From contig DXJG01000009.1 of the NCBI GenBank assembly GCA_019056805.1, positions 30,001 through 62,000 on the forward strand: DNA of 32,000 nt, in the 5' to 3' direction. The translations under genes were made by a program, and so were the position numbers. Origin of the DNA: Candidatus Baldrarchaeota archaeon (lineage in GTDB: Archaea > Asgardarchaeota > Baldrarchaeia > Baldrarchaeales > DXJG01). Positions 18,029 to 18,752 of this stretch are shown here, piece after piece (position 1 is the first letter of the stretch; every line of letters begins with the position of its first letter). Under the pieces are notes generated by a model. The model was given only the letters and a program-made list of their open reading frames with translations. It was not told where the DNA came from and did not search any database.

Positions 18029-18752
18029 ATGGAGGAGGATTTTAACGTTAAGAGAGAAAAACTTATAGAAAGACTAGTTAAAGAAGGAATCTTAAAAAGT
18101 CACCGGGTAATTAAAGCTTTCAAACGTGTTCCCAGAGAGCAGTTTGTTCCCCCAGAAGCAAGAAAATATGCTTACGTCGACCAACCACTACCAATAGGCT
18201 GGGGACAAACCATAAGCGCGCCACACAGCTAGCAACACAATGCTAGCTGGGCGACACATGGTCGCAATTATGTGCGAAACTCTTGACCTTGAAGTAGGGC
18301 ATAAAATCTTAGAAATTGGTACAGGTAGTGGGTATCATGCTGCCATTTGCGCTGAAATAGTTGCTCCCTCTGATGCGGATCCTAGTGTTTGGGGACATGT
18401 TTACACTATCGAAAGAATTCCTAGTTTAGCTGAGTTTGCCAGAAAAAATCTTGAGAAAACAGGATATTTGAACAGAGTTACAGTTATTGTTGGAGATGGA
18501 ACTTGTGGCTATGCTGAAGCAGCTCCATACGATAGGATTTTAGTTACTGCTGCAAGTCCAAAGATTCCGGATCCTTTAGTTGCTCAATTAAAGATAGGAG
18601 GAAAACTTGTTATTCCTGTAGGGCATATACATTATTGGCAGGATTTAATTCTAGTCATCAAAAAGAAAGATGAAAAAATTGAAACTAAGAATTTAGGTTC
18701 TGTAGCGTTTGTGCCACTTGTAGGAAAATACGGTTGGCGCGAAGATGAATAA
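18029..18752 (+). CDS. pcm: Protein-L-isoaspartate O-methyltransferase, intron-containing: join(18029..18224,18256..18752), 230 aa
   Basis: The two ORF-track pieces carry VPREQF...AY[17 protein letters not shown] and MVAIM...LEIGTGSGY...GDG...APYD-x-I-x-VTAA...GGKLVIPVG...FVPL. Removing 31 nt joins them to QTISAPHMVAIM: 693 nt, 231 codons including the stop. Confidence 0.92.
18225..18255 (+). other. 31-nt archaeal bulge-helix-bulge (BHB) intron in pcm mRNA
   Basis: Central helix CGCC(18219-22)/GGCG(18250-53), ACA bulges at 18223-25 and 18254-56, 9-bp intron stem CAGCUAGCA/UGCUAGCUG, and exon pairing G18218-C18257 plus ACCAU/AUGGU. Cuts after the 2nd nt of each bulge restore the frame. Confidence 0.88.

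Follow-up and report, generated by a model that had tools for sequence, protein, structure and literature searches.

A predicted tRNA-type intron in the coding region of the only pcm gene of a Baldrarchaeota archaeon

Introduction

Can a gene that is broken into two reading frames still yield its enzyme? The question is raised by pcm in the window studied here (the whole stretch of DNA analysed, 32,000 nt, G000:C17:30001-62000), where the ORF list gives the gene as two plus-strand ORFs in different frames, at 18029-18232 (67 aa) and 18240-18752 (170 aa). The first ORF terminates in QTISAPHS followed by a stop codon, and the frame break falls within QTISAPHM, which among pre-region-I motifs is the most conserved in the PCMT family. 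The genome, from a member of the Asgard archaea (phylum Promethearchaeati), is assembled to 1.92 Mb in 18 contigs with 35.6% G+C. A Pfam search of this 91%-complete assembly found no second true PCMT gene, and pcm is single-copy there.

Archaeal tRNA introns reportedly occupy canonical as well as non-canonical positions and come in hBHBh' and relaxed forms of the bulge-helix-bulge (BHB) motif, as surveyed by Marck and Grosjean in 2003, and a BHB intron in the cbf5 pre-mRNA of Crenarchaeota is said to have been described by Watanabe in 2002 and Yoshinari in 2006. The crenarchaeal cbf5 intron occurs in Aeropyrum, Sulfolobus and some Desulfurococcales (Yokobori 2009, PMC2738675). A BHB intron in the 5'UTR of the Haloferax volcanii HVO_1309 mRNA has experimental support in that one species, and the same 2020 paper named cbf5 as the sole reported mRNA intron besides its own 5'UTR case (PMC7714728). 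For Atabey- and Freyarchaeia, 92-95% of the tRNA genes were reported to carry introns, and no protein gene was (PMC11291895, PMC11529989). A sequence-only reading of the window had proposed that pcm is interrupted by a BHB intron and knew of no description of one in this gene. Our search agrees with it: no description of a pcm intron was found in the openly accessible full-text literature, where cbf5 is the published coding-region case.

Results

The interrupted pcm gene

Both ORFs matched the Pfam PCMT profile (PF01135) above its curated cut-off of 20.3 bits. The first covered profile positions 3-60 (58.8 bits, E = 8e-16) and the second positions 59-208 of 210 (170.9 bits, E = 4e-50), a full-length match from which the product of pcm is predicted to be a protein-L-isoaspartate O-methyltransferase. 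The downstream part of the gene contains EIGTGSGY, the AdoMet-binding glycine motif. The nearest named relative in a protein-based scan of species-representative genomes was a Candidatus Baldrarchaeota MAG, with 85% identity over exon 2.

Deleting the 31 nt at 18225-18255 produced an open frame of 230 aa that reads SAP-H-M-VAIM across the junction with QTISAPHM intact, and this product is collinear with intron-less homologues, with a gap-free junction. On this reading, exon 1 spans 18029-18224 and comprises 65 codons plus the first base of a His codon, and exon 2 spans 18256-18752, from the final two bases of that His codon to the stop codon. The length of the predicted intron shifts the frame, and a TAG at 18230-18232 closes the upstream ORF. 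Two proposals of the sequence-only reading, that pcm is split into out-of-frame ORFs inside QTISAPHM and that removal of these 31 nt gives a full 230-aa enzyme, are thus borne out by the ORF list, the PCMT coverage and the restored frame.

Upstream of pcm lies a divergent FEN1 gene (16558-17595, minus strand) with XPG_N and XPG_I domains. Directly downstream, also on the minus strand, is a 357-aa ORF (18809-19882) that has no Pfam match at E ≤ 0.001; its translation terminates in a cysteine cluster, C-x6-C-x2-C-x5-C.

Bulge-helix-bulge structure at the junction

The central helix of the motif is formed by CGCC at 18219-18222, which are exon bases of the Ala-Pro codons, and GGCG at 18250-18253, which are intron bases; it appeared in the fold and was paired in 58/58 aligned sequences. 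Next to it are two ACA bulges. The 5' bulge (18223-18225, predicted cut after 18224) was found in the fold and as a bulge in 58/58 aligned sequences, and the 3' bulge (18254-18256, predicted cut after 18255) was assigned by comparison of junctions, its third base, the second base of the His codon, being A in 58/58. Between the bulges, the fold showed an intron hairpin (18226-18249) with a perfect 9-bp stem (18226-18234/18241-18249) and a 6-nt loop (18235-18240). On the exon side, the 5' partner (18209-18218) consists of ACCAU at 18209-18213 plus G18218, and the 3' partner (18257-18262) of C18257 plus AUGGU at 18258-18262; ACCAU/AUGGU came from the fold and the G-C pair from the comparison. The strand order, helix-bulge-stem on the 5' side and stem-helix-bulge on the 3' side, is by analogy that of the canonical tRNA intron at 37/38. 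No Rfam family was found at the pcm locus.

The minimum free energy (MFE) fold of 18200-18270 had an energy of -25.4 kcal/mol compared to a shuffle mean of -14.7 (z = -4.3), and 0/200 shuffles were as stable. It holds ACCAU/AUGGU, CGCC/GGCG, the ACA bulge of the 5' strand, and the 9-bp stem with its 6-nt loop. The energy model left G18218-C18257 unpaired, so that ACAC of the 3' strand is single-stranded and ACCAU/AUGGU closes a 5x4 internal loop that includes the 3' "bulge"; a 3-nt bulge there needs closure of the isolated G18218-C18257 pair. This isolated pair was kept in 58/58 relatives (GC in 56, GU in 2). The outer 5-bp helix, which lies beyond a 4-nt loop, was 83% paired, without covariation, and its middle pair was unpaired in 34/58 sequences. 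Set against the strict hBHBh' form with its flanking helices, the intron side offers a strong helix, of 9 bp here and with 94.9% pairing and covariation over its six inner pairs among the relatives, and the exon side one conserved G-C pair plus the 5-bp helix. The exon-side helix is weak, and the pcm motif is relaxed on that side.

The structure as first described is confirmed, with one qualification. The central helix, the ACA bulges, the 9-bp stem and the 6-nt loop all lie at the positions first assigned to them, but "canonical" is too strong a word for the weak exon-side helix. Likewise, the proposed exon-exon pairing is present in the fold as ACCAU/AUGGU, and its other component, G18218-C18257, is unpaired in the energy model though kept in 58/58 sequences. 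Two 3-nt bulges flanking a 4-bp helix were found in the fold and in 20/20 loci collected without use of the RNA pattern.

Distribution of inserts at the same codon

We scanned archaeal genomes with a site pattern made of the exon codons, a gap of 12-42 nt, GGYG, two bases and AYATG. Inserts at the same codon were found in 86/817 Asgard, B24-class and Bathyarchaeia genomes: 18/400 Asgard genomes (phylum sample), 13/17 genomes of the class holding Bathyarchaeota B24, and 55/400 sampled Bathyarchaeia. Reversed-pattern controls gave 0 matches in all three groups (817 genomes), which indicates that the pattern matches are beyond chance. The Asgard matches lie in the Baldr-, Jord/Frey- and Atabeyarchaeia lineages, save one on a possibly foreign contig in a genome of family f4. 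With the present genome included, the families with a match were f1 (3/4), f2 (1/1), f13 (2/3), f8 (5/5) and f18 (6/6), and the 135 genomes of f9 gave none, as did those of f7, f5, f21 and the remaining Asgard families searched.

A Pfam search of 41 Asgard genomes, blind to the RNA motif, found pcm split at about profile position 60 in 11 loci, spread over the genus of the present genome, its order and three more families; the rest were unsplit. All 11 split loci have the insert at the identical codon, and each shows the 4-bp helix, both 3-nt bulges and a hairpin whose sequence is wholly different between families. A protein-based scan that gathered 80 loci across many phyla of archaea revealed more inserts in Jordarchaeia and in genomes labelled Bathyarchaeota or Bathyarchaeia, all with the BHB motif, and the loci of this set that have no insert are unsplit with a contiguous SAPHM, SAIHM or SACHM. 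One insert-bearing MAG labelled Thermoproteota is a member of Asgard family f8. The insert is present in two complete Atabeyarchaeia chromosomes and in one complete genome of family f18 (probably Freyarchaeia); in the protein-based scan, G015 corresponded to the complete Atabeyarchaeia-1 chromosome CP147779, and G020 to a Jordarchaeales MAG.

Conservation and covariation of the inserts

We collected 61 distinct intron-bearing genes, and 58 distinct sequences were aligned for pair counts; the rows behind these counts are related and do not represent independent events. Insert lengths ranged from 20 to 34 nt, with remainders of 0, 1 and 2 after division by three in 17, 21 and 23 of the 61 genes, and every in-frame insert (17/17) contained an in-frame stop. 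An in-frame insertion peptide was rejected on these two grounds, the lack of bias to multiples of three and the stops. The spliced ORFs are intact and 190-260 aa long in all genes but two (98 and 186 aa), the 98-aa ORF sitting at a contig end. The sequence-only reading had held that additional inactivating mutations would mark the gene as a pseudogene; we found none in the exons of the 61 distinct genes, and the exons are conserved.

The central helix was 100% paired in 58/58 sequences, its second pair being GC in 45, AU in 12 and GU in 1. In the AU form, the exon has a synonymous Ala change (GCG to GCA), and the intron changes along with it from GGCG to GGTG. The single sequence with a G-U wobble in the central helix (CGCC/GGUG; G416:C28:4443-4498, L155) has the look of a transitional form that links the GC and AU states at this covarying position. 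Double-sided changes occurred at each of the six stem pairs closest to the bulge, and 94.9% of the cells were paired in the 58 sequences. The covariation score was 0.382 compared to 0.121 in shuffles, 0/500 of which reached 0.382, and when the 3' partners were slid by 1-3 columns, 30-44% were paired compared to 92.9% for the structure. Part of the alignment was collected with the site pattern, which itself dictates three of the four pairs of the central helix in those rows and so introduces an ascertainment bias; in the 20 loci that were obtained independently of the RNA pattern, the same helix is present, with 4/4 central pairs and 3-nt bulges. Inserts at this codon therefore vary in length and sequence among relatives and keep the BHB geometry by compensatory changes, the outcome for which the sequence-only reading had suggested looking.

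Cutting after the second nucleotide of each bulge, which opens the 230-aa frame here, rebuilds a His codon in 58/58 sequences, as CAC in 56 and CAT in 2. The preference for CAC in intron-bearing genes (56/58) differs from intron-less homologues, where CAT (47) and CAC (37) are both used. Similarly, the Pro codon is only CCA or CCT in intron-bearing genes, compared to all four Pro codons in intron-less homologues. This restriction of synonymous codons beside the predicted intron fits selection on RNA structure.

Splicing machinery and other introns in the genome

The host encodes both EndA and RtcB. The EndA family is represented by two genes on the minus strand of contig C9 (G000 C9:197884-198129 and C9:13779-14039), whose products of 184 and 178 aa both have an N-terminal and a catalytic C-terminal domain, and RtcB by one gene. 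Two EndA paralogues are the gene content of a hetero-oligomeric endonuclease, an assembly state that we infer from the genes. Broad specificity and the splicing of cbf5 have both been tied to hetero-oligomeric EndA (Yoshinari 2006, as cited in PMC12397907). No interruption was found in the cbf5 gene of this genome.

A genome-wide scan for a BHB motif combined with an open frame, which is an insensitive search, gave 1422 raw candidates and 44 after a codon-usage filter. Only pcm and POR-gamma (2-oxoacid:ferredoxin oxidoreductase gamma) were convincing among the 44. The remaining filtered candidates were rejected as boundaries between adjacent genes. The predicted POR-gamma intron is 35 nt long (G000:C6:49473-49507, L194:1513-1547, plus strand), has an 11-bp stem and a GCAG/CUGC helix, and splits FGAE/RRGAP; the Pfam POR profile is matched at positions 1-32 upstream of the insert and at 33-172 downstream. 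Two congeners (G001, G003) have the intron with compensatory changes in the stem, and a search of 58 further Asgard genomes did not reveal it. On this comparison, the genome is predicted to carry at least one mRNA intron beyond pcm, in POR-gamma.

Elsewhere in the genome, an MFS-type transporter gene on the plus strand of contig C11 (G000:C11, near 228196-228300, 0-based) is apparently frameshifted; no convincing BHB motif was found at this site, and the frameshift may be a homopolymer error or real. The window itself contains an interrupted tRNA on the minus strand (25087-25207), where the Rfam match spans 121 nt compared to a 71-position model and includes an intervening sequence of ~50 nt. 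ARAGORN reported no tRNA in the window and so missed this one, which indicates that ARAGORN is unreliable for such intron-rich genes.

Alternative explanations of the interrupted frame

The two ORFs might be translated separately, the C-terminal fragment restarting at the Met of the HM motif or at an ATG in the insert, with the fragments assembling and the hairpin providing translational coupling. A Met codon does follow the junction in 58/58 sequences, and the insert of this genome has an in-frame ATG at 18240; however, an ATG inside the insert is present in only 10/58, and the break lies in the most conserved motif of the family. A coupling hairpin would also leave unexplained the invariant 3-nt/4-bp/3-nt geometry, the covariation between the exon wobble base and the intron base, and the constant rebuilding of the His codon by the canonical cut. 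We consider a split gene of this kind very improbable. Translational bypassing, known from gene 60 of phage T4, would involve take-off at the CAC after the Pro codon and landing on a second CAC 31 nt downstream, aided by the hairpin and the nearby stop. In this gene both codons are CAC and TAG comes two codons later, but take-off and landing codons match in only 3/58 sequences, and what is conserved is the BHB geometry and not the codon pair. We rejected bypassing because of this low frequency of codon match and give it almost no credence.

Seen in the window alone, pcm is a frameshifted gene that pipelines would call a pseudogene, and the 31 nt could then be a random insertion or a misassembly that inactivates it. 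Against decay or a sequencing or assembly artefact stand the inserts that recur at this one codon in 86 genomes of two phyla, all assembled independently and complete chromosomes among them, the intact and conserved exons of 61 distinct genes, the compensatory substitutions in the structure, and the single-copy status of pcm in the genome. We find such an explanation scarcely believable. A BHB intron that is removed from the pcm mRNA would account for the geometry, the covariation and the rebuilt His codon, and we consider it highly likely that 18225-18255 is an archaeal tRNA-type intron in the coding region of the only pcm gene of this genome.

We also looked for transcripts of the locus. Among the sequencing runs matched to positions 17950-18800 of the window (DNA only) or to a Freyarchaeia-type homologue (L042), no RNA run with the pcm locus was found. 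Logan contigs of four wetland metatranscriptome runs gave no match to the same homologue. Together, these results speak neither for nor against splicing.

Discussion

The pcm mRNA must very probably be cut and rejoined. In the mechanism that we propose, pcm would be transcribed as a single pre-mRNA, in which CGCC of the exon (Ala-Pro codons) would pair with GGCG of the intron to form the 4-bp helix between two 3-nt bulges, beside the 9-bp hairpin. The splicing endonuclease, in which both EndA paralogues (~180 aa each) are probably joined as a heteromer, would cleave after the second base of each bulge. RtcB would then ligate the exons to give GCG CCA C/AC ATG (the slash marks the junction) and would probably circularise the intron. 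Only the spliced mRNA would encode the 230-aa protein-L-isoaspartate O-methyltransferase, and the unspliced mRNA would stop at the TAG two codons past the junction. The proposal that this is a functional pre-mRNA intron in a second gene family is supported by comparative sequence evidence, namely the inserts in 86 genomes, the covariation and the presence of EndA and RtcB.

The predicted pcm intron resembles that of cbf5 in several respects. Both are short coding-region BHB introns, excision of which at the bulges puts a conserved enzyme back in frame, and both occur patchily among lineages. In both cases the hosts are rich in non-canonical tRNA introns and encode a pair of differing EndA-type subunits. 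They differ in that pcm encodes a protein-repair methyltransferase and its hosts are Baldr-, Jord/Frey- and Atabeyarchaeia together with Bathyarchaeia. Also, RT-PCR and in vitro cleavage have demonstrated the splicing of cbf5, whereas splicing of pcm is deduced from sequence. The HVO_1309 intron shares with the pcm intron that the candidate substrate of the archaeal splicing endonuclease is an mRNA, outside tRNA and rRNA, but it lies in an untranslated leader and leaves the reading frame uninterrupted, whereas the pcm intron interrupts the coding region. With tRNA introns, pcm has in common the 3-4-3 motif, the predicted cut positions and the enzymes (EndA, RtcB), and it occurs in Asgard lineages reported as rich in tRNA introns. 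Unlike a tRNA, the exon half of the pcm structure is built from codons, which places the structure under coding constraint and restricts synonymous choice. The predicted pcm intron is thus an element of a known kind, a coding-region BHB intron, in a new host gene and in new phyla.

Published archaeal biology has one coding-region intron of this type, that of cbf5, which has been treated as an oddity, and a second gene family alters this picture. If the reading is true, splicing of the mRNAs of protein enzymes would be established in these lineages and would have belonged to their gene expression for a long time. Such genes would then be miscalled systematically as frameshifted pseudogenes during automated annotation, and metabolic reconstructions of uncultured archaea would be affected. 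The pcm junction would also serve as a clean, short substrate (~70 nt) for the specificity of an Asgard splicing endonuclease.

A maximum likelihood tree was built from 144 PCMT proteins, each either intact or spliced. On it, 5 changes account for the intron label, compared to a shuffled mean of 46, and 0/500 shuffles were as low. The intron-bearing proteins fall into a Bathyarchaeia-type group of 43, the Baldrarchaeia genus, a same-order relative together with Atabeyarchaeia, and a supported Jord/Frey group of 11; the deep branches of this tree are weak. A tree constrained to place the 60 intron-bearing rows in one clade had a log-likelihood 0.66 higher (p-AU 0.49) and was not worse, so a single origin of the intron-bearing pcm lineage is compatible with the data. 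Judged from its predicted members, the lineage is old and spans class-level lineages of Asgard archaea and Bathyarchaeia. Under a single origin, it would have been shared between the two by transfer, or inherited with many losses. A broader reading joins these points: EndA-dependent mRNA splicing may be routine in tRNA-intron-rich Asgard archaea and Bathyarchaeia, and the pcm intron may have been gained once, moved between both with its gene, and been kept for a function, e.g. to make production of the enzyme dependent on EndA/RtcB. We offer this as a tentative idea and, on balance, doubt it.

The Asgard f4 genome that yielded the one further match is Wukongarchaeia-like and has three PCMT loci. 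On the protein tree, its intron-bearing copy (L043/L144, G017:C126:5243-5296) falls within the Bathyarchaeia-type clade, which suggests that the contig is a contaminant or that the gene was transferred.
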